Shown: positions 47,630 through 56,600 of the stretch, piece by piece
How positions within the stretch are numbered: the first letter of the stretch is position 1
Layout: the number at the start of each line of letters is the position of its first letter
NCBI GenBank assembly: GCA_035370505.1
Contig: DAOOVU010000001.1
Coordinates: forward strand, 17,109 to 81,108
Length of the DNA: 64,000 nt
Direction: 5' to 3'
Source: Candidatus Dojkabacteria bacterium
Lineage (GTDB): Bacteria; Patescibacteriota; Dojkabacteria; SC72
The notes under the pieces: model-generated
The model's database searches: none
What the model saw: the letters and a program-made list of their open reading frames with translations, nothing else
What the model was told of the DNA's origin: nothing
Made by a program: the position numbers and the translations under genes

Positions 47630-49225
47630 ATGAAAATAAGTTTTAGAAAAGATTTAGGAATTGCAACAATAAAATCTGAATCTAACTGGAATAGTATTAA
47701 TATACATACACTTTTGCAAAATGTGGGGGAGAAACGTCCTTCAATAAATGCATATCTTGCAGCAAGATACAGTAGGTCATCTGATTCCATTTTGGATATT
47801 GCTTCGGAGATAATTAAGGATAATAGGGATTCTGCAGAGAGACTCGAGAAGATATTTGCTGGGTATGGTCATAAATCAGTTGGTGATATGGCTGACCTAT
47901 TTGTGTGTCTTGAGAATATTCCAATGTTTTCTGCGATGAAAATATTTTATGCTAATTCAGTTATAGCTGGGCAGGAAAGATCTACAAGATATCAGAATTT
48001 TGAGAATCCAGAATTTATCAAGATACCAAGAGAGATTTGTGAGAATACTGATGTGAGGAAGGAGTATGAAAGGATTATGTTAAAGGAGATTTCTGATTAT
48101 AGAGAACTTCTTAAGCCTACAAGAGAGAGTTTAGGTAATTATTTCTCAATAAATCAGGAGAGTCCTCAGGAAACTTCGGCTTTGAAATCGAGAGCTTTTG
48201 ATACTGCTAGATATCTCTTGCCTTTTGGGCTTGCTACAAGTTCTGCATATTTGATGTCTGCAAGATGTTGGTCTGACGAGATTTCATATTTATCTGCAAG
48301 TGATTCTGTTGTTGATAATGAGATATCAGAATTACTTATTAATTTGCTTGGTGAGAGTGATTTGGATGCGAAGGGGTATATTCGTGAGGCTGATAATTTG
48401 ATAAGGCATACAGATGCTAATTGCAATAGAAAGAATTCAACAGAGGAAATAATTGAATATTTAAGTAAATTTATTTCGAAAGAGCAAATTAGGGATATTG
48501 CAGAGAATGAGAAGGATTCTGTCATAGTGTCGTATTGTCCAGATTGTACTGAAACATTGATTTCCCATTATGAATTATTAATAAATCCCTTAGGGTCTGC
48601 TGAGGAATTAGAGTTTTCTGAAGATGATCAGGAATACATAAGCAATGTATTGTTTGAGAGGCATGATCATAACAACACTATTGGAAATTTAGGACAGTCT
48701 GGTGCTATTAAAGTTTCTGGTTTTGCTTCTTTGGGGACGCTAAAGGATTTGAATAGGCATAGGAGTTTAGAAAGATTTATTCCTTTGCTACATGATGGTG
48801 TAGATATGGATCAGGAGTTAAGGAGAAGGAATGATCAGTGTTTTTATTTGTGTAACTATTTGGATATTCCAAATTTGAGCAGATTAAAGAAGGAGTATCA
48901 GGAGAGGCTAGAGGAGACATACGAGAGGATAAGGGGGTGGAGAAAATATGCAGAAGAATATATGCCAAAGGAAGTAGTTGATGAATTTACTAGGTATCTG
49001 CTTCCTCATGCTCATGCAACTAAGTATGTAATGTATGGGTCTTTTGATGATTTGCAATATGTAATTAATTTGAGGAGTAGGAATGGAGGACATATAGCGT
49101 ATAGAGTGCTAGTCTATGAATGGTTGAGACAGCTTAGTGCGAAGGATCCTATATGGAAAGCATTGCTTAAAAAAGTTATTACTCCAAGGGTTGATGATAA
49201 ATCTCAGTTTATAGATAGGAGTTAA
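47630..49225 (+). CDS. Putative flavin-dependent thymidylate synthase (ThyX-like), unusually long / tandem form
   Basis: First half has GYGHKSVGDMADLF (ThyX GHxSVxE-like) and ...QERSTRY (the ThyX SxRY element) but ANS in place of RHR. Second half has NRHRSLERF (RHR) without SxRY. It sits between glyA and dcd. Confidence 0.4.
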   Translation: MKISFRKDLGIATIKSESNWNSINIHTLLQNVGEKRPSINAYLAARYSRSSDSILDIASEIIKDNRDSAERLEKIFAGYGHKSVGDMADLFVCLENIPMFSAMKIFYANSVIAGQERSTRYQNFENPEFIKIPREICENTDVRKEYERIMLKEISDYRELLKPTRESLGNYFSINQESPQETSALKSRAFDTARYLLPFGLATSSAYLMSARCWSDEISYLSASDSVVDNEISELLINLLGESDLDAKGYIREADNLIRHTDANCNRKNSTEEIIEYLSKFISKEQIRDIAENEKDSVIVSYCPDCTETLISHYELLINPLGSAEELEFSEDDQEYISNVLFERHDHNNTIGNLGQSGAIKVSGFASLGTLKDLNRHRSLERFIPLLHDGVDMDQELRRRNDQCFYLCNYLDIPNLSRLKKEYQERLEETYERIRGWRKYAEEYMPKEVVDEFTRYLLPHAHATKYVMYGSFDDLQYVINLRSRNGGHIAYRVLVYEWLRQLSAKDPIWKALLKKVITPRVDDKSQFIDRS

Positions 49226-49828: not shown

Positions 49829-50947
49829 TTACATTGTAGGTGGAACTTGAGGAAGTTCACCTGATGGAGTTTCATCAATTTTGGGCTGTATTGGTTGTCC
49901 AGCAGGTTGTTGAGGAATTTTGCTTATTTCACTATTAATCATATTCTGAAAATCATCTTGAGCTGGTATCTCTCCTGTAGTGTCAGGAATAGTAACTGCT
50001 GGTTCTGTTTGCATTGGCTGTGGTTGTTGTGGAAACTGAGAACTATTATCTGGAGACAAAAAATCGCTCGCAACAGATTGATCTAATGTGGGTTGACCAA
50101 ATGAAAGAGTATTGTTATTTTGAAATGTATTAATATCACTTGCACCGTAATTCTGTGCTTGGACTGGATTCTGAGCGACAGGTTGTACTGGTTGAGTCAT
50201 GTCTATGTTTGAAGAGAAAGGTTGCTGAGTTTGTTCCTGTTGTTGTGTCTGGTATGGATAAGGTTGATTTTCTGTTTGTGTTTGTACAGGGGTTGATGCA
50301 GTCTGTCCAATTGTAAAGTTAGGTTGCACTGAGGATTGCATATCATTGCCAGATTGAGGGATTGTTTGTTGAGTATCCATAGAACTGGGTACAGTAGTCT
50401 GATTAACTATATCAGCAAGTGTAGGTTTCGTTTCTTCAGTTTGGGTCTGAGGAGTTGAAACAGCTTGATTATTTGAATCGTTGTTAGGTGCAGAATTGAT
50501 ATCTTCTGGAGCAGATGTAGGCTGTGGAGTTACCTGTACGAGTTCCTGTGCTCCTCCTTTCTTCTTACTACTTATCAAAATCCCAATTATGCTAACAAGA
50601 AGGATAACTGATCCAACGATTAGTACATATGGAAGATAATCCATGTAACTGCTGGATGTACTTTTCGTAGACTTGCTTGTAGTTGTAGTAGTAGTTGTTG
50701 TTGTAACGGGTGTCGTTGTGGTTTCTGCTGTTGTTCCATCAGTTTGTGTTGTTGCATCAGTAGTTTGAGTAGTAGATTGGGTTGTATTTGCATCGTTTGT
50801 ATTTGATGTTGAGGTATCGTCAGAAGTGGTAGTAAATGATGATTCACTTGATGATACTGATACTCCAGAATCTGTTTGAGCAAAAACAGCCATTGGTAAA
50901 ACACAAACTAAAGATACAATAAAAATATACTTAGATAAATTTTTCAT
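49829..50947 (-). CDS. Bitopic surface protein with Thr-rich mucin-like segment and Gln/Pro-rich low-complexity domain
   Basis: Signal peptide, T-rich run (...TTTPVTTTTTTTTTSKST...), TM (LPYVLIVGSVILLVSIIGILI), then a Q/P/T-rich domain. Confidence 0.5.
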   Translation of the reverse strand: MKNLSKYIFIVSLVCVLPMAVFAQTDSGVSVSSSESSFTTTSDDTSTSNTNDANTTQSTTQTTDATTQTDGTTAETTTTPVTTTTTTTTTSKSTKSTSSSYMDYLPYVLIVGSVILLVSIIGILISSKKKGGAQELVQVTPQPTSAPEDINSAPNNDSNNQAVSTPQTQTEETKPTLADIVNQTTVPSSMDTQQTIPQSGNDMQSSVQPNFTIGQTASTPVQTQTENQPYPYQTQQQEQTQQPFSSNIDMTQPVQPVAQNPVQAQNYGASDINTFQNNNTLSFGQPTLDQSVASDFLSPDNSSQFPQQPQPMQTEPAVTIPDTTGEIPAQDDFQNMINSEISKIPQQPAGQPIQPKIDETPSGELPQVPPTM

Positions 50948-51029: not shown

Positions 51030-52307
51030 ATGTATTTGACTTGGCATCTTACAAAATATACACTTAGTGAGAATATGAATTACCAAGATTTGAACATTAT
51101 TCAAAACGGAATGCAAGGTGAAGCACAGAATGCTGTTGTTGGTGTGTCTGCTATGGATGAAAGTTTGAATGAGATAAAAGAGCTTGAAGAGAAGCTTCTG
51201 AATTCTGGGTGTCCAGATGGATTGAAAGAAGAAACTATGAGGTCAATAGCACGACTTCGAAGGATGGTGAAAATGGGTGGATATAGCAGTGAATTTGAGA
51301 ATGTAAGTAAATATGTTGATTGGGTAGTAAGAATTCCATGGGGAATGATTTCCGCGGATAACTTAGATATTAGCAATGCTAAAACTGTAATGGATCAGAC
51401 TCACTATGGAATGGATGATATAAAGAAGTTAATAATTGATTATCTTGCTGCAATGCAACTCCAAAGTGGGATAGGGATACCATCTAGTCAAGCAAGTATT
51501 CCTACGCAGTTAGGTACTCCTTATTCTCCAGAAGCAGATCATGTATCTGAAATGGTTAAATTGAAAGGGTCTTCAGCAAATGCTCCTGTTTTCCTTTTTG
51601 TTGGATTACAAGGTGTAGGAAAGACTTCTATTGCGAAATCGATAGCTGTTGCGATGAACAGAAAATTTGCAAGGGTGTCTCTTGGTGCAATAGGTGACGT
51701 AAGAACTTTAAGGGGTACTCCAAGATATTCAATAGATGGGGAGCCAGGACAGATTATTAAGGCGCTTATTCGTTGTGGAACTATGAATCCAGTGATCCTT
51801 TTAGATGAAATTGAGAAATCAAGTGGAAATTCAGGTCTACTTAATGATGTTATGGCAACTCTTCTGGAAATTCTTGATCCAGAGCAGAATTCAACATTTA
51901 TAGATCATTACATAGATTATCCTGTTGATTTATCAAAAGTATTTTTTATATGTACTGCGAATAATTTAGGAGGGTTATCTGCTGCACTGCTAGATAGGGT
52001 GGAGGTCATAAGGTTTACTAGTTATTCTGATGCAGAAAAAGAGGTCATTGCTAAGGAATATATTCTTCCTAAGGTTTATGAAAATCTGCATATATCTCCA
52101 GAGTATGTAACAATAGATGAAGATGTTTGGCCCAATTTAATAAGGCCTGTTGGTTTTGATGCAGGTATCAGGCAACTTGAGAGGAATATTGCGACAATGA
52201 TGAGAAGTGCGGCCAGAATGATAGTCGAAGGTCATCCTCTGCCTATTAGTATTACAAAAGATAATTTGAATCAGTTTGTTTTGTCTGATCAAGGGCCTTT
52301 GAGTTAG
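51030..52307 (+). CDS. Lon-type AAA+ ATPase module lacking the S16 protease domain
   Basis: Pre-AAA motif VDWVVRIPWGM...DQTHYGMDDIKKLIIDYLAAMQLQ; Walker A GLQGVGKTS; LLDEIEKS; LDPEQNSTFIDHYIDYPVDLSKVFFICTANN; LDRVEVIRFTSYSDAEKEVIAKEYILPK. The ORF ends where the Lon protease domain would begin. Confidence 0.7.
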   Translation: MYLTWHLTKYTLSENMNYQDLNIIQNGMQGEAQNAVVGVSAMDESLNEIKELEEKLLNSGCPDGLKEETMRSIARLRRMVKMGGYSSEFENVSKYVDWVVRIPWGMISADNLDISNAKTVMDQTHYGMDDIKKLIIDYLAAMQLQSGIGIPSSQASIPTQLGTPYSPEADHVSEMVKLKGSSANAPVFLFVGLQGVGKTSIAKSIAVAMNRKFARVSLGAIGDVRTLRGTPRYSIDGEPGQIIKALIRCGTMNPVILLDEIEKSSGNSGLLNDVMATLLEILDPEQNSTFIDHYIDYPVDLSKVFFICTANNLGGLSAALLDRVEVIRFTSYSDAEKEVIAKEYILPKVYENLHISPEYVTIDEDVWPNLIRPVGFDAGIRQLERNIATMMRSAARMIVEGHPLPISITKDNLNQFVLSDQGPLS

Positions 52308-52573
52308 TATCCCTTAAATGGGTTTTCTAATTTTAGAGCTGATATAGCTGCTTCCATCTGTGGAGATTGTATTCCCCTAGCTATAGCTCTATGCATTCTT
52401 TTTTGTTCTGCCTTGTTAAGGAGATATAGATCACTCTCCTTTTTTTGTTGTGGTATTGAATTTGTATCTATAGCATGTGTTATGAGGTAGTTTTCTTCTT
52501 GAATTGTATTTGTGTTATTGTTCTGCTGATTGTCCATTATCGTCATTATTATTCTCTTCTGGATAGCTTTCAA
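52304..52573 (-). CDS. Small hypothetical protein (89 aa) at the distal end of the VirB4 operon
   Basis: Overlaps the VirB4 3' end by 59 nt; N/Q-rich; no motif. Confidence 0.3.
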   Translation of the reverse strand: MKAIQKRIIMTIMDNQQNNNTNTIQEENYLITHAIDTNSIPQQKKESDLYLLNKAEQKRMHRAIARGIQSPQMEAAISALKLENPFKGY

Positions 52574-55145
52574 CTATTCCCTGAGGAGTTAAATGTCCTT
52601 TCCCTTTTTGTATCTTCATTCTGTCTGATACGACCTGTCCAGAGATTGTGCTGTCTTCGATCTTTTGAAGAAAATCTTTTTGTTGTTGGTATCCTCCTGA
52701 ATTCAATTGCATCTCTTGTTGCTTTAGTCTTTCCTCAAGTTCTTTCTGATATTGTTCTCTTTCCTCTTCTAAGAATGTTTTTTCTGTTTCTTTCTTTTCT
52801 ACTGCATGTTTTATAATTTCTTCTTGTCTTGCAATCTTTCCGTCTTTCATAGGTTTTTGTTGTGTTGGAGTATCAAATACTTGTGCTAATTCCTCCATAG
52901 TTCTTGTGTCAGGCTGTCCCTTTCTTTCAGCAAGTTTTTCAAGGTCTCTTGGATCTGAGGTTATCAACTCATGTTCTGATGTGCTAGAGAGGACTTGGAT
53001 TCCAACATGGTTTGATCCTGCGAAGAATAGTCCTTGTCCTTTATCACAGTTCAAAAGGAAATTTTTTTCTCCATCAGAGAGATTAAAGACTTGCTGTAGT
53101 TTATCTGCGGCGGTAGGGCTTTGCATCATAAGCATTTGCAGAGAGGAGTTGGCAATAATTGCCTTCCCCATGTCATTGTTTAGGAAGTCATTTACATCCT
53201 GTGTAATCGTTGATAGGCCAAGATAGTATTTCCTTGCTCTTTTTGCTATGGAGTACATAAATTTTGCAGAATCTTCAGATTGCATCATATACCATGCCTC
53301 ATCTACTATAAGTATTCTTCTTTTTCTGTCTTTTCTTACTTTTGTCCATATAAAATCGAGCATGAGATACATTGCTAATGGTTTTAGTTCTTCCTGCAGG
53401 TCACGAATACTAAAAACAGTAAGAGGGTTGTCAATTTCAAAATTACTTGCTTCGTTGAATACTCCTGCCCCGCTTCCTATGATGTATCTTTCTAGTCTTC
53501 TTGCCAATCCGTGTGCCTCTTCTTCTGCCATTCCTTTTAATACTTTGTAGAGATCTTCTAAAAGTGGAGGCTGTTTACTTTGTGTAGCTGGATCGTATGT
53601 TATGCCTTTCTCTCTGTAAGTTAGTATGAGAGCTCTGTCAAGTATGGATTCTTCTATATTAGTGAGATTTCTGTATAGTACTTTGAAGAAGCCATGTAGA
53701 GAAAGTAATTTCATTCTTAGCTCGTCATCTCCCTCTTCTGTAGATGATGCCAATTCGAATGGGTTCATTTTATTTCCCTTATCCTGTGAGAATGATATAT
53801 ATGAACCATTAACAGCAGATGCTAGGTTTTCGTATTCTCTTTCTGGGTCAATAATAATTATTTCGGTTCCGAGCATTAAACTTCTCAAAGCTTCTAACTT
53901 TACAAAATAACTTTTTCCAGCTCCTGACTTTGCAAACACAACGGTATTTGCATTCTCAAGTTCAAACCTATCAAAAATCACAAGGCTTTTGTTATGCATA
54001 TTTAATCCGTACATTATTCCATGATCCATAGTTAATTCTGATGTGACGAATGGGAATGTAGTTGCTAAGGATGTCGTATCCATATTTCTTGTAATGTACA
54101 AGTTGTCAATTCCAAGAGGTTGTGTGCTTATAAATCCTTGCTCCTGTTGAAGGGTTGCTGGTTTTGCTGTCACATTTATAGCTGCTAGAGTGGATACTAC
54201 ATTCCTAGATATTTTTTCTAGTTCATCCTTACTTTTTGCATATATTGTAATGTACATCGTGAAATGGAAGAATTTTTCTGTACCTTCAGCTATTGAATCT
54301 TGCAACTGTTGTGCATCGGAGAGAGCAACTTTTAGTGATGGATCTATTACTTTCCTTTCTTCCATTTGTGTATACATTGTTGCTTCCATTTCACCTATTT
54401 TCTTTTTTAATTTCTCAAGTATTGTTTTAGAATCAACTGGGTAATAGAAAGTACTTATTCTGAGGGAATGTTCAAAATTAATAATAGGAGAAAGCCAATT
54501 TGGCCCAACAAATCTAGGATACCCACTTACAAACAGGGTTCTAAAATAGTAATCTCCCATTTGAAGGTGGTTGAAATCGACTTCTAGATCTATTGGAGCA
54601 ATGATATCTTGTAAAGAGATATTAACATCTTCACCAATTATAGATGGAATTACTGAAGAATCTTCTTGAGGAGCTTCTTCTTGTGTTTTATTCTCAGGTG
54701 TTGGAGTCGTGGATTTACTATCCTTGTTTACTTGTGTGGAGATTGTATCAAGAAACTGAAAGAGTGGATTTTTGTTTTGTTTTGCAGGTGTACTAGTTTG
54801 TTGTGTTGTTTGTGAGGAAGTAGTATTTTCCTTTTCGTCCTTGTTTTGTGTCGGCTGTGGAGTAACCTTTATGTTGTTTTTCTTGTTATATTGACCTGCA
54901 AAATAATCAAGAATCTTTAGAAGTGGATTCTTTTTTGGTTTTGTTTTCTCTTCATCAGCAGGGAATGGATCTAAATATTTAGCCCTATTATCATTTGGGT
55001 CTTTTTGCTGTGAAGTTTTTATTGGGTTATTGATAGGATTTTTCTGTAAAGTTGATATTGGGTCTTTATTTAATGTTTTAGTTAAGTCATTCTCAAATGT
55101 TCTGTTGTAATTATTTTTGCTTATGTCTTCCATACTATTCTTCAT
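52515..55145 (-). CDS. virB4: VirB4/TrbE-family type IV secretion ATPase (Gram-positive type) with N-terminal low-complexity extension
   Basis: Walker A VVFAKSGAGKSYFVKL; Walker B ILIVDEAWYMM; a CagE/TrbE-type N-domain (...YYFRTLFVSGYPRFVGPNWL...) preceded by ~170 aa of T/Q/P/N-rich sequence with two copies of a K(K/N)NPL(L/F)x(I/F)LD motif. Confidence 0.85.
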   Translation of the reverse strand: MKNSMEDISKNNYNRTFENDLTKTLNKDPISTLQKNPINNPIKTSQQKDPNDNRAKYLDPFPADEEKTKPKKNPLLKILDYFAGQYNKKNNIKVTPQPTQNKDEKENTTSSQTTQQTSTPAKQNKNPLFQFLDTISTQVNKDSKSTTPTPENKTQEEAPQEDSSVIPSIIGEDVNISLQDIIAPIDLEVDFNHLQMGDYYFRTLFVSGYPRFVGPNWLSPIINFEHSLRISTFYYPVDSKTILEKLKKKIGEMEATMYTQMEERKVIDPSLKVALSDAQQLQDSIAEGTEKFFHFTMYITIYAKSKDELEKISRNVVSTLAAINVTAKPATLQQEQGFISTQPLGIDNLYITRNMDTTSLATTFPFVTSELTMDHGIMYGLNMHNKSLVIFDRFELENANTVVFAKSGAGKSYFVKLEALRSLMLGTEIIIIDPEREYENLASAVNGSYISFSQDKGNKMNPFELASSTEEGDDELRMKLLSLHGFFKVLYRNLTNIEESILDRALILTYREKGITYDPATQSKQPPLLEDLYKVLKGMAEEEAHGLARRLERYIIGSGAGVFNEASNFEIDNPLTVFSIRDLQEELKPLAMYLMLDFIWTKVRKDRKRRILIVDEAWYMMQSEDSAKFMYSIAKRARKYYLGLSTITQDVNDFLNNDMGKAIIANSSLQMLMMQSPTAADKLQQVFNLSDGEKNFLLNCDKGQGLFFAGSNHVGIQVLSSTSEHELITSDPRDLEKLAERKGQPDTRTMEELAQVFDTPTQQKPMKDGKIARQEEIIKHAVEKKETEKTFLEEEREQYQKELEERLKQQEMQLNSGGYQQQKDFLQKIEDSTISGQVVSDRMKIQKGKGHLTPQGIVESYPEENNNDDNGQSAEQ

Positions 55146-55770
55146 CAGGGTTATATATAGTGTAGAACTCAGATATCAACTCTTTGTCTGTTAATTGATG
55201 CCCAAATAATCCCATTCTTCCTAATTGCTTTAGAATATGGTCTCTCTTTGGATACAGAAAGATTTTTGCCTTTTCAATCACTTGAGATGTGTCCATATCT
55301 TCTATTTGTTGCTGCTCTTCTTTGGATTTTTTCTTCTTTAGTGGAGAGACATTTGGAAGTTGACCACCTGGATAGTATGGGATAACTATAAAGAAGCTTT
55401 TATCAAGCACATCATTTTCTACTATCAAATTCTTAACAAACAGTGTATAGATATCAAGCTGTTTTCTTAATCCTTCTGTCATAGGTCTTTCTTTTTGTAT
55501 ATTTAGATAGTCAAGATAGTTAGTAATATCAACTCTCTTTGTCCTTATCAATATTTGAATTTTGAAATTTAGAGAGTTTAATAGGCCTGCAAAAGCATAA
55601 ATTTTATTGTCTTGTTCATAGTCAGCTAAAAGCTCAAAGTTTATGGAAGATGTTTGTAATACCAATGCCACACTCCCATTTTTATTTATAACCAAGTCGT
55701 CGGTTATTTGTTTTATAGCAAGATGGTCTTGTGTTGATGCTGTCGCTCTTGCTCGCGCATTTTTATCCAT
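55135..55770 (-). CDS. VirB4-associated protein resembling the extreme N-terminal segment of Gram-positive VirB4 homologues (possible split VirB4)
   Basis: ...LVINKNGSVALVLQTSSINFELLADYEQDNKIYAFAGLLNSLNFKIQILIRTKRVDITNYLDYL... pattern; ends 11 nt inside the start of the VirB4 ORF. Confidence 0.45.
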   Translation of the reverse strand: MDKNARARATASTQDHLAIKQITDDLVINKNGSVALVLQTSSINFELLADYEQDNKIYAFAGLLNSLNFKIQILIRTKRVDITNYLDYLNIQKERPMTEGLRKQLDIYTLFVKNLIVENDVLDKSFFIVIPYYPGGQLPNVSPLKKKKSKEEQQQIEDMDTSQVIEKAKIFLYPKRDHILKQLGRMGLFGHQLTDKELISEFYTIYNPDEE

Positions 55771-55775
55771 TTTTT

Positions 55776-56600
55776 CTACAAAGCATTAATCTTAATTGGT
55801 AATCTATTATTTATTTTATTCATTATTATTTCAACAGAGGGAAATTCATATTGAGGGTGCTGGAAATCTATTGTGTAAGTTCCTGGCTCCCACTCCTTGT
55901 TAGTTAGGAAATAGCCGTTTGGGCCAGTTTTGCTTGCATAAAGGATTTTTCCGTTGGAATCCCTTAGATATGCTACAACATTTGGGATAGGTTTAAAATC
56001 TTTAGTACAGAGCCAGCAGTTAATATTGCCGGGAAGGTTTTCTAAACCTTTTGTTGAGAATTGATAATTTGCTAGGTTTTCATCGGTAATAATCAGTTTT
56101 GTTGGATCAATTTGTGTGGTCTGCTGAGGAGCAGTCTGCAGAATGTCTAAATTATCTTCAGTTTTTTCATCAGCTTTCTCAGTGGTTATTGTATCTAAAC
56201 CTCCTCCTATTATCTTTTTTGTATTTTCTTTCTGATCTTTATTAATTAATTGACCATCTTTTGTTGGTTTCAGAAGTGGCTTTGTTCTCGCTTCCTTCAT
56301 TTGTTTGTTTAGCCATGTTCTTTGTGTTGGATTATTTATAGCGGTTATATAACTTTGTATGAATTTATCAGCATCTTGTCCATTTATTGGGACAAGTCCA
56401 AGAACAATTCCTATGATTGAGCTGACTATACATATTGGGATACCTAAAATTGCAGGCATAATGTCTGATACCACTAAATACACCATTAGTCCGCCGAATC
56501 CAACTCCTATGGCGAGGTATGTAAACTCTTTTAATGTGAATTTAGTAAATAACTTAAATTCAACATCTAAAACATTTTGCGGTATAGCATGTTGTCTCAT
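55776..56600 (-). CDS. PrgI/VirB3-like two-TM protein with C-terminal beta-rich extracytoplasmic domain
   Basis: N-terminal ...VEFKLFTKFTLKEFTYLAIGVGFGGLMVYLVV... (PrgI-family pattern), a second TM, then a C-terminal domain with PGTYTI-type beta-sandwich signature; first gene of the minus-strand operon. Confidence 0.5.
   Translation of the reverse strand: MRQHAIPQNVLDVEFKLFTKFTLKEFTYLAIGVGFGGLMVYLVVSDIMPAILGIPICIVSSIIGIVLGLVPINGQDADKFIQSYITAINNPTQRTWLNKQMKEARTKPLLKPTKDGQLINKDQKENTKKIIGGGLDTITTEKADEKTEDNLDILQTAPQQTTQIDPTKLIITDENLANYQFSTKGLENLPGNINCWLCTKDFKPIPNVVAYLRDSNGKILYASKTGPNGYFLTNKEWEPGTYTIDFQHPQYEFPSVEIIMNKINNRLPIKINAL

Follow-up and report, generated by a model that had tools for sequence, protein, structure and literature searches.

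Does a gene that carries the ATPase module of a Lon protease and no protease domain encode a working protein and, if it does, what kind of activity could be expected from it? This question is raised by the open reading frame (ORF) at positions 51030 to 52307 of a 64,000-nucleotide stretch of DNA (hereafter, the window) from Candidatus Dojkabacteria bacterium (contig DAOOVU010000001.1, positions 17,109 to 81,108), for which an original prediction had offered either a decaying lon pseudogene or a protease-less Lon-like unfoldase. Our analysis indicates that the gene is probably a functional, selectively maintained LonA paralogue, whose product would use ATP to remodel, chaperone or assemble other proteins without degrading them and would not be a processive threading unfoldase. 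In the mechanism that we propose, the ATPase would assemble into a Lon-like hexameric ring and use ATP; the ring would remodel, chaperone or assemble its clients without proteolysis or processive polypeptide threading, and the client or partner would differ among lineages, or be still to be found.

The mechanical ORF (51030..52307, plus strand, 425 aa) translates into a protein that contains every motif quoted in the original prediction. Pfam analysis of the protein revealed matches to AAA (PF00004, aa 189-330) and Lon_lid (PF22667, aa 355-402), and neither Lon_C (PF05362) nor LON_substr_bdg (PF02190) was found. The NCBIfam model TIGR00763 (endopeptidase La) was matched with E=3e-96, the match being restricted to model positions 249-567 of 795; the score of 323.6 bits was under the curated cut-off of 608.05, as was that for PRK10787 (222.9 against a cut-off of 891). 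The top matches among solved structures were LonA and LONP1 (E ~1e-70), and alignment to LonA of Meiothermus taiwanensis (MtaLonA) placed query aa 35-150 on residues 232-344 and query aa 184-401 on residues 347-561. The AlphaFold2 (AF2) model, which had a mean predicted local distance difference test (pLDDT) score of 72.6, displayed the helical bundle, alpha/beta and lid elements as expected, and its best Foldseek matches were LONP1, MtaLonA, E. coli Lon and Yersinia Lon, with query-normalised template modelling scores of up to 0.69; the range was 0.58-0.69 for LONP1, MtaLonA and E. coli Lon. The pre-AAA domain was modelled as helices at 20-131 (pLDDT ~75-88) and matched LonA and LONP1 in Foldseek. 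The motifs, Pfam, TIGR00763 and the structure alignments thus agreed on a Lon pre-AAA segment followed by a complete AAA+ module, as predicted. The stop was likewise located where the S16 protease domain should begin, with no Lon_C and with both the TIGR00763 and MtaLonA alignments ending at the linker, and the globular LonN domain was indeed missing, the TIGR00763 alignment starting only at position 249. The ATPase is, in short, the C-terminal part of the LonA helical region joined to the whole AAA+ module, and its end is the protease-domain linker. The features of the gene are as follows.

51075 to 52307, plus strand: likeliest coding sequence of the protease-less Lon-type AAA+ ATPase, 410 aa and stop, from orthologue starts and ends and Lon matches
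51141 to 51473, plus strand: LonA-type pre-AAA helical domain, aa 23-133 of 410, from the alignment to MtaLonA 232-344, with DWVVRIPWG and HYGMDDIKKLIIDYLA motifs
51474 to 51581, plus strand: variable linker, aa 134-169, predicted disordered (pLDDT <50), with a conserved P-(T/S)-Q motif
51582 to 52022, plus strand: AAA+ alpha/beta subdomain, aa 170-316, with the Pfam AAA match and invariant catalytic residues
51603 to 51626, plus strand: Walker A, GLQGVGKT (canonical LonA: GPPG[VT]GKT)
51711 to 51749, plus strand: pore-loop-1 region, RGTPRYSIDGEPG, with Ser aligned to MtaLonA Tyr397 and Tyr one residue earlier
51798 to 51818, plus strand: Walker B, LLDEIEK, with D244 and E245 invariant in the wide family alignment
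51951 to 52004, plus strand: sensor-1 CTANN (N296) and arginine finger LLDRVE (R308), both invariant
52023 to 52280, plus strand: Lon-type lid (AAA+ alpha subdomain), aa 317-402, with the Pfam Lon_lid match and sensor-2 GIRQLER, R366 invariant
52287 to 52307, plus strand: C-terminal tail DQGPLS and stop, corresponding to the LonA protease-domain linker

The linker between the helical bundle and Walker A, which is much shorter in MtaLonA, was measured in 60 orthologues and was mostly 22-60 aa long, two outliers reaching 140 aa, and its P and Q were conserved in at least 90% of the orthologues. Together with the conserved C-terminal tails, this P-(T/S)-Q insert is a family-specific feature without explanation so far.

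The original prediction had also held that minus-strand genes occupy the DNA that follows and that the S16 domain is genuinely absent. When four S16 domains and two Lon N-domains were searched by tblastn against all frames of the 64-kb window, none was found (best E=0.38), so that an in-frame continuation into S16 was seen in no frame. The DNA past the stop does consist of minus-strand genes that are conserved in relatives, namely an 89-aa ORF (52304-52573) and a VirB4-like gene (52515-55145). Because no frame of the window holds an S16 domain and conserved minus-strand genes lie downstream, the truncation is genuine.

Comparison with orthologues revealed that the same truncation is kept across the aligned relatives, with a shared start and a near-invariant tail. 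Homologues formed at least 120 clusters at 90% identity, and among the matches listed all were 382-425 aa long and 66-100% identical, the range for the Dojkabacteria clusters of this architecture being 66-82%; the clusters, where named, were almost always called 'Candidatus Dojkabacteria', and some lay on contigs of 0.67-0.76 Mb. About one third of all positions were invariant in an alignment of 65 sequences, and the DQGPLS tail was present in 58 of these, the remaining seven being one residue off. Nonsynonymous divergence (dN) between the window gene and three relatives was 0.21-0.34; synonymous divergence (dS) was saturated at the available divergences, and the dN/dS ratio of at most 0.07-0.17 is therefore an upper bound only. 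As far as that bound reaches, the check for purifying selection called for at the outset came out positive. The protein was 74% and 71% identical to its counterparts in two relatives (L001 and L003, respectively), values comparable with those of GlyA (75% and 69%), Dcd (74% and 64%) and LepA (78% and 73%), and it was more conserved than FolD, ThyX, RecF and an ABC transporter in the same comparisons. The sequence data thus point to a gene under strong purifying selection. Since the architecture is kept in relatives, dN/dS is low and conservation resembles that of housekeeping genes, the gene is not a pseudogene.

The window gene belongs to a wider protease-less family, which spans 36-65% identity and includes other Patescibacteria, mainly Microgenomates. 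An exhaustive HMMER search of representatives at 50% identity returned more short proteins (343-507 aa, 42-65% identity) that end at the lid, and a search with a Roizmanbacteria member added no fewer than 120 further clusters (345-386 aa), which carried Roizman-, Woesebacteria or Microgenomates labels. We also scanned GTDB species genomes, the counts being taken among the 600 matches listed. In 36 loci the gene ended 0-20 aa past the lid (0-3 aa in all but one), and no S16 and no Lon N-domain occurred within ~10 kb of these short genes. Their metagenome-assembled genomes (MAGs) were labelled Shapiro-, Ames-, Levy-, Davies-, Roizmanbacteria or 'Patescibacteria group', and some assemblies automatically labelled 'Gammaproteobacteria' had the same gene content as the Patescibacteria-type MAGs. 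Most Microgenomates members carry a C-terminal tail of the hydrophobic-Pro-x-Trp/Tyr type, such as LPTW or LPQY. The same scan gave 42 complete canonical LonA loci, two further ones, cut by contig ends, being left outside this count; Lon_C was present in 42/42, a single LonN query matched 33, and the other nine had an open frame of 218-250 aa upstream of the AAA match.

Neighbour-joining analysis of the AAA module split 44 protease-less sequences from 41 canonical ones with a bootstrap of 100/100 and recovered the clade ending in DQGPLS with the same value. From these sequences the protease-less family is monophyletic against canonical LonA. Canonical LonA is present in Microgenomates as well, on a Woesebacteria contig (L051) and on a Roizmanbacteria scaffold (L090) where it is broken only by a run of N. 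As both forms coexist at lineage level, the short form is a paralogue and not a degraded orthologue. Among the loci L018-L042, many are from TPA_asm MAGs whose titles read 'uncultured Gammaproteobacteria' or 'Pseudomonadales', and one is from a MAG titled 'Methanoperedens'. These carry the Patescibacteria-type gene, many of them in the same gene arrangement, and their taxonomic labels look unreliable.

The ATPase site is intact. The Walker A Lys, Walker B Asp-Glu, sensor-1 Asn, arginine finger and sensor-2 Arg were invariant in the 65 close orthologues and in an 18-sequence wide alignment, and the Walker A pattern G-x-x-G-x-G-K-T was invariant in both the close orthologues and the wide family. 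Judged by these residues, ATP binding and hydrolysis are almost certainly retained, and a Lon-like hexameric ring would be the natural inference. The pore loops are different. Degradation by MtaLonA needs two pore-loop residues, Tyr397 (pore-loop 1) and Trp431 (pore-loop 2), both of which touch the chain during translocation (PMC8503904). Pore-loop 1 read R-R-T-Y-(I/V)-G in all of the 43 sampled canonical LonA proteins. At the position equivalent to Tyr397, the protease-less family had S, F, H, E, R, K, Y and others, with F or Y in 12/44; the pore-loop-2 aromatic was present in 1/43 members, and pore loop 1 carried a conserved acidic (D/E)-(A/S/G)-E-P-G stretch. The window protein has Ser at this position and Tyr one position before it, this preceding Tyr being found in 56/65 close orthologues, the others having Gln, His or Phe there. 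In this family, then, absence of the protease domain is accompanied by a threading paddle that is no longer constrained, as would be expected if no polypeptide is fed into a chamber.

The proposal of a protease-less unfoldase therefore stood in part: the protein is protease-less and its ATPase site is intact, but 'unfoldase' is doubtful, since the gripping Tyr and Trp are unconserved. Given invariant ATPase residues together with an unconserved pore-loop Tyr, the protein is probably a remodeller or chaperone in preference to a classical threading unfoldase. The best surviving alternative, which we nevertheless regard as rather unlikely, is that of a classical unfoldase or disaggregase that threads by means of non-canonical loop residues, like free ClpX or ClpB. 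The intact ATPase site and the retained Lon pre-AAA helical bundle would suit such an enzyme, as would the Tyr that adjoins the canonical position in most close orthologues and the location of some family members near groESL or clpB. However, some clade members have Gln, His or Phe in place of that Tyr, the loop is free of constraint across the family, the pore-loop-2 aromatic is absent, and two acidic residues are fixed in the loop.

In the window, the gene converges with the following operon.

52304 to 56600, minus strand: type IV secretion system (T4SS)-like operon from Pfam matches, comprising the 89-aa ORF, a VirB4/TraG-P-loop ATPase, a TraC-like gene and a PrgI-like gene

Its last gene is the 89-aa ORF, which had no family match and was 52% and 45% identical in relatives. 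The stop of the ATPase gene overlaps that of the 89-aa ORF by 4 nt, and the same overlap occurs in L001 and L003; convergence with a VirB4-like operon, as noted originally, is thus real and tail-to-tail. This arrangement was present in 7/7 loci of the DQGPLS clade, representing six distinct contigs as L001 and L002 are near-identical. It was kept in L006, L011 and L012 despite changed upstream neighbours, with 1-3 kb of other genes between the ATPase and the operon in L006 and L011. No VirB4 was found within 10 kb of the 38 other protease-less loci.

A second alternative follows from this arrangement, namely that in Dojkabacteria the protein is an ATPase or chaperone dedicated to the T4SS-like apparatus (VirB4/TraC-like/PrgI) next to it. 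Adjacency in all clade loci, including the three with altered upstream genes, and the conserved 4-nt overlap with the last operon gene speak for it. Against it, the two units are not co-transcribed, because their orientation is convergent; genes have been inserted between them in two loci; the remaining protease-less loci lack a nearby VirB4; and synteny is broad (folD to LepA in L001 and L003; LepA and RecF in L010 and L012), so that the adjacency is perhaps historical. We therefore consider this alternative unlikely. The functional link to secretion-like machinery that had been suggested survives weakly, as adjacency within the clade and not as co-transcription or as a family-wide association, and the tail-to-tail position with the VirB4-type operon is at most a lineage-specific association.

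Gene order in other lineages leads elsewhere. In 23 of the 33 Microgenomates-type loci (L013-L045, e.g. L013:4033-16064), the gene is flanked on its own strand by pnp, which encodes PNPase and is separated from it by a median gap of 78 bp, and by rnj, which encodes RNase J; the conserved block in these loci reads infB, an unknown gene, rpsO, pnp, the ATPase gene, (udg), rnj and ftsK. In a subfamily with the Walker A sequence GLAGTGKT (L007, L018, L031, L032, L042, L044, L092), the gene stands head-to-head with groES-groEL in 7/7 loci, 350-670 bp from groEL, and in another lineage it follows rplY, 4 kb from groES-groEL-clpB. GroEL was found within 10 kb of 10/44 protease-less loci as against 0/43 canonical loci, these loci not being phylogenetically independent. 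Neither the vicinity of the gene nor the intergenic regions between groES and the ATPase gene contained an HrcA/CIRCE operator at up to 3 mismatches. Genomic context thus points weakly to a proteostasis role, to a secretion-machinery link in the one clade, and to no neighbouring protease partner.

A third alternative, a split Lon in which the ATPase would work in trans with a separately encoded S16 peptidase and so rebuild an ATP-dependent protease, appears improbable. The conserved C-terminal tails (DQGPLS, or those of LPTW or LPQY type in Microgenomates) could serve as docking motifs, and two-ORF canonical Lon genes in some metagenomic lineages (L093-L095) indicate that Lon can be split. Yet neither the 64-kb window nor ~10 kb around the 44 protease-less loci held a Lon_C domain, and tblastn with three S16 domains over 89 loci revealed no S16 near any protease-less gene. 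The sole apparent stand-alone S16 located inside its contig was a scaffold-gap artefact, and loss of the threading Tyr also speaks against the feeding of a protease chamber. When S16-domain proteins were searched with a Woesebacteria Lon query, the 120 matches listed contained short fragments only and none labelled Dojkabacteria.

Candidates for a separate S16 were each rejected. P0287 (Roizmanbacteria), seemingly a stand-alone lid plus S16, is a full-length Lon interrupted by a scaffold gap (a run of N), and P0365 is a fragment at a contig end. P0405 and P0336, for both of which the longest contig was 17,845 bp, had been considered as one contig bearing both Lon forms, and their contigs differ. 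Other arrangements of Lon modules were also observed. In three independent assemblies (L093:237-2603, L094:151-2517 and L095:237-2603), canonical LonA consists of two adjacent ORFs ~140 bp apart, of 454 aa (N-domain and AAA alpha/beta) and 286 aa (lid and S16), preceded by a CIRCE-like TTAGCAGAG-N9-GAGTGCTAA ~45 bp upstream; such a Lon may be split by nature or result from a frameshift. P0123 (1113 aa) has three and P0126 (997 aa) two tandem Lon-type AAA+ modules, in each case followed by a single S16 and preceded by a hydrophobic N-terminal segment.

That the gene is a decaying lon pseudogene, or its truncation a sequencing or assembly error, is scarcely credible: the protein has only about half as many residues as LonA and does not reach the TIGR00763 cut-off, but start, end and length are alike in at least 120 independent clusters from many assemblies, the same architecture recurs in at least 120 Dojkabacteria and at least 120 Microgenomates clusters, the C-terminus is near-invariant, dN/dS is at most 0.17 with conservation equal to that of housekeeping genes, the DNA downstream encodes conserved minus-strand genes, no frame of the window holds an S16 remnant, and the family is monophyletic and old.

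Several points weigh against the remodeller or chaperone proposed here. Hexamer formation and ATPase activity are predicted from homology alone. The Tyr placed one residue early in 56/65 sequences of the subclade may provide some polypeptide grip. A separate S16 partner, for which we see a slim chance, would have to be encoded beyond the 64-kb window and the ~10-kb flanks covered in relatives. Gene context varies by subfamily and gives no single functional pointer, and the pnp...rnj...ftsK neighbourhood may be inherited gene order. An extended version of the proposal is put forward only tentatively, as one that we hold possible rather than probable: an ancient, single-origin LonA paralogue would have shed the protease chamber together with its aromatic threading paddles, retained a fully competent ATPase site and taken up a new non-degradative, non-threading job. 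It could be an ATP-dependent assembly or remodelling factor that each lineage has recruited to another cellular system, candidates being the T4SS-like apparatus in Dojkabacteria and, in Microgenomates, the GroES/EL regulon or the RNA-decay block of PNPase and RNase J. On this reading, the window-type ATPase might be the sole remaining Lon-type protein in Dojkabacteria.

The Met at 51075 (M16 of the mechanical ORF) is the start in all 64 aligned orthologues, and none has the upstream extension. Because 64/64 begin there, the start was set at 51075, and from this alignment the true start is probably 51075 and not 51030, giving a product of 410 aa. The segment left upstream is probably promoter or 5' region and not coding.

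51030 to 51074, plus strand: 15-codon upstream extension of the mechanical ORF, absent from orthologues and containing a promoter-like site
51036 to 51064, plus strand: sigma-70-like promoter candidate TTGACT-N17-TACACT, from a consensus scan, 9/12 matches

The sequence TTGACT...TATACACT was also aligned upstream of the orthologue in L001, one of three relatives aligned. The number of promoter-like sites in the consensus scan was not above the shuffle expectation, and TTGACT-N17-TACACT is offered as a putative promoter, an inference and not proof. An intrinsic terminator was sought between the convergent genes and none was found.

The chromosome in the window is low in GC (~34%) and carries the housekeeping genes leuS, metG, rpoD, dnaG, ftsK, dnaK, groEL, murJ, folD, glyA, thyX, dcd, lepA and recF. 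Upstream of the ATPase gene, a minus-strand gene (49829-50947) encodes a Ser/Thr/Gln-rich protein with a signal-peptide-like hydrophobic N-terminus and an internal hydrophobic stretch; it was poorly conserved, at 44% identity over 81 aa in L001, and an Aminotran_5 gene stands in its place in L003, so this slot is variable. Further upstream (47630-49225, plus strand), ThyX is 531 aa long, with two Thy1 stretches, and has the same length in L001 and L003. A ThyX of 531 aa is about twice the usual size.

How does the window ATPase compare with known Lon proteins? LonA (TIGR00763, MEROPS S16A; MtaLonA, E. coli Lon, LONP1) has in common with it the pre-AAA bundle, the AAA+ alpha/beta subdomain and the Lon lid, along with Walker A and B, sensor-1, arginine finger and sensor-2. 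Identity over the AAA module was 34-39% by tblastn and averaged ~41% in the trimmed AAA alignment. Unlike LonA, the window ATPase is devoid of the globular N-terminal substrate-binding domain and of the S16 Ser-Lys protease, has GLQG where LonA has GPPG in Walker A, and possesses an extra disordered linker before Walker A; the LonA pore-loop-1 RRTY(I/V)G is replaced in the protease-less family by xPRYSID/xSRxxxD-AEPG, and the two form separate clades. As four LonA-defining features (S16, N-domain, pore-loop Tyr and curated score) are lacking, the gene is not to be annotated as Lon protease. No dedicated Pfam or NCBIfam model for the protease-less family was matched, and public annotation gives 'AAA family ATPase' or, wrongly, 'ATP-dependent Lon protease'. 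As a possible anti-phage defence ATPase (PADLOC), the protein gave generic AAA matches only and was rejected (DolB 37.5 bits, as compared to 323.6 for the Lon model).

LonB (the archaeal membrane Lon, and Bacillus LonB/LonBA) keeps the protease, and archaeal LonB also has a transmembrane segment inserted into its AAA+ module. LonB resembles the window ATPase in being without the LonA-type N-domain and differs from it by the protease and, in the archaeal form, the transmembrane insertion. ClpB/Hsp104, and ClpX without ClpP, stand-alone AAA+ chaperones of the same clade, are likewise non-proteolytic ATP-driven proteostasis rings, and one protease-less subfamily adjoins groES-groEL. ClpB/Hsp104 and ClpX rely on conserved aromatic pore loops, which are not conserved in the protease-less Lon family, and similarity of the window ATPase to ClpA/ClpB was marginal (E ~1e-9 to 1e-5). 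A protease-independent chaperone activity of Lon/Pim1 was reportedly described by Rep et al. in 1996. Our search of the literature on Lon in Patescibacteria, the candidate phyla radiation or Dojkabacteria, or on Lon without a protease domain, returned no relevant description. Lon proteases are described as single-chain, always with ATPase and protease (PMC9569914). LonC (MtaLonC) is called a 'Lon-like protease with no ATP-powered unfolding activity' (PMC3391209). So described, LonC resembles the window ATPase as a natural member of the Lon group that has dispensed with one of the two activities of Lon; it is also its mirror image, with the protease kept and the AAA-like module inactive, whereas the window ATPase has intact catalytic residues and no protease.

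The protease-less family is thus the opposite of LonC, the known exception, which lost ATPase activity and not the protease, and it contradicts the textbook definition of Lon as ATPase plus protease in one chain. It is abundant, with several hundred sequence clusters in two major Patescibacteria lineages, and uncharacterised; automatic 'Lon protease' calls in the tiny genomes of Patescibacteria are therefore to be read with caution. Since the gene is conserved like core metabolic genes in gene-poor organisms, it is probably important for the biology of its hosts, and the family offers a natural experiment in what would be a Lon ATPase ring without a chamber and without the pore-loop tyrosine.

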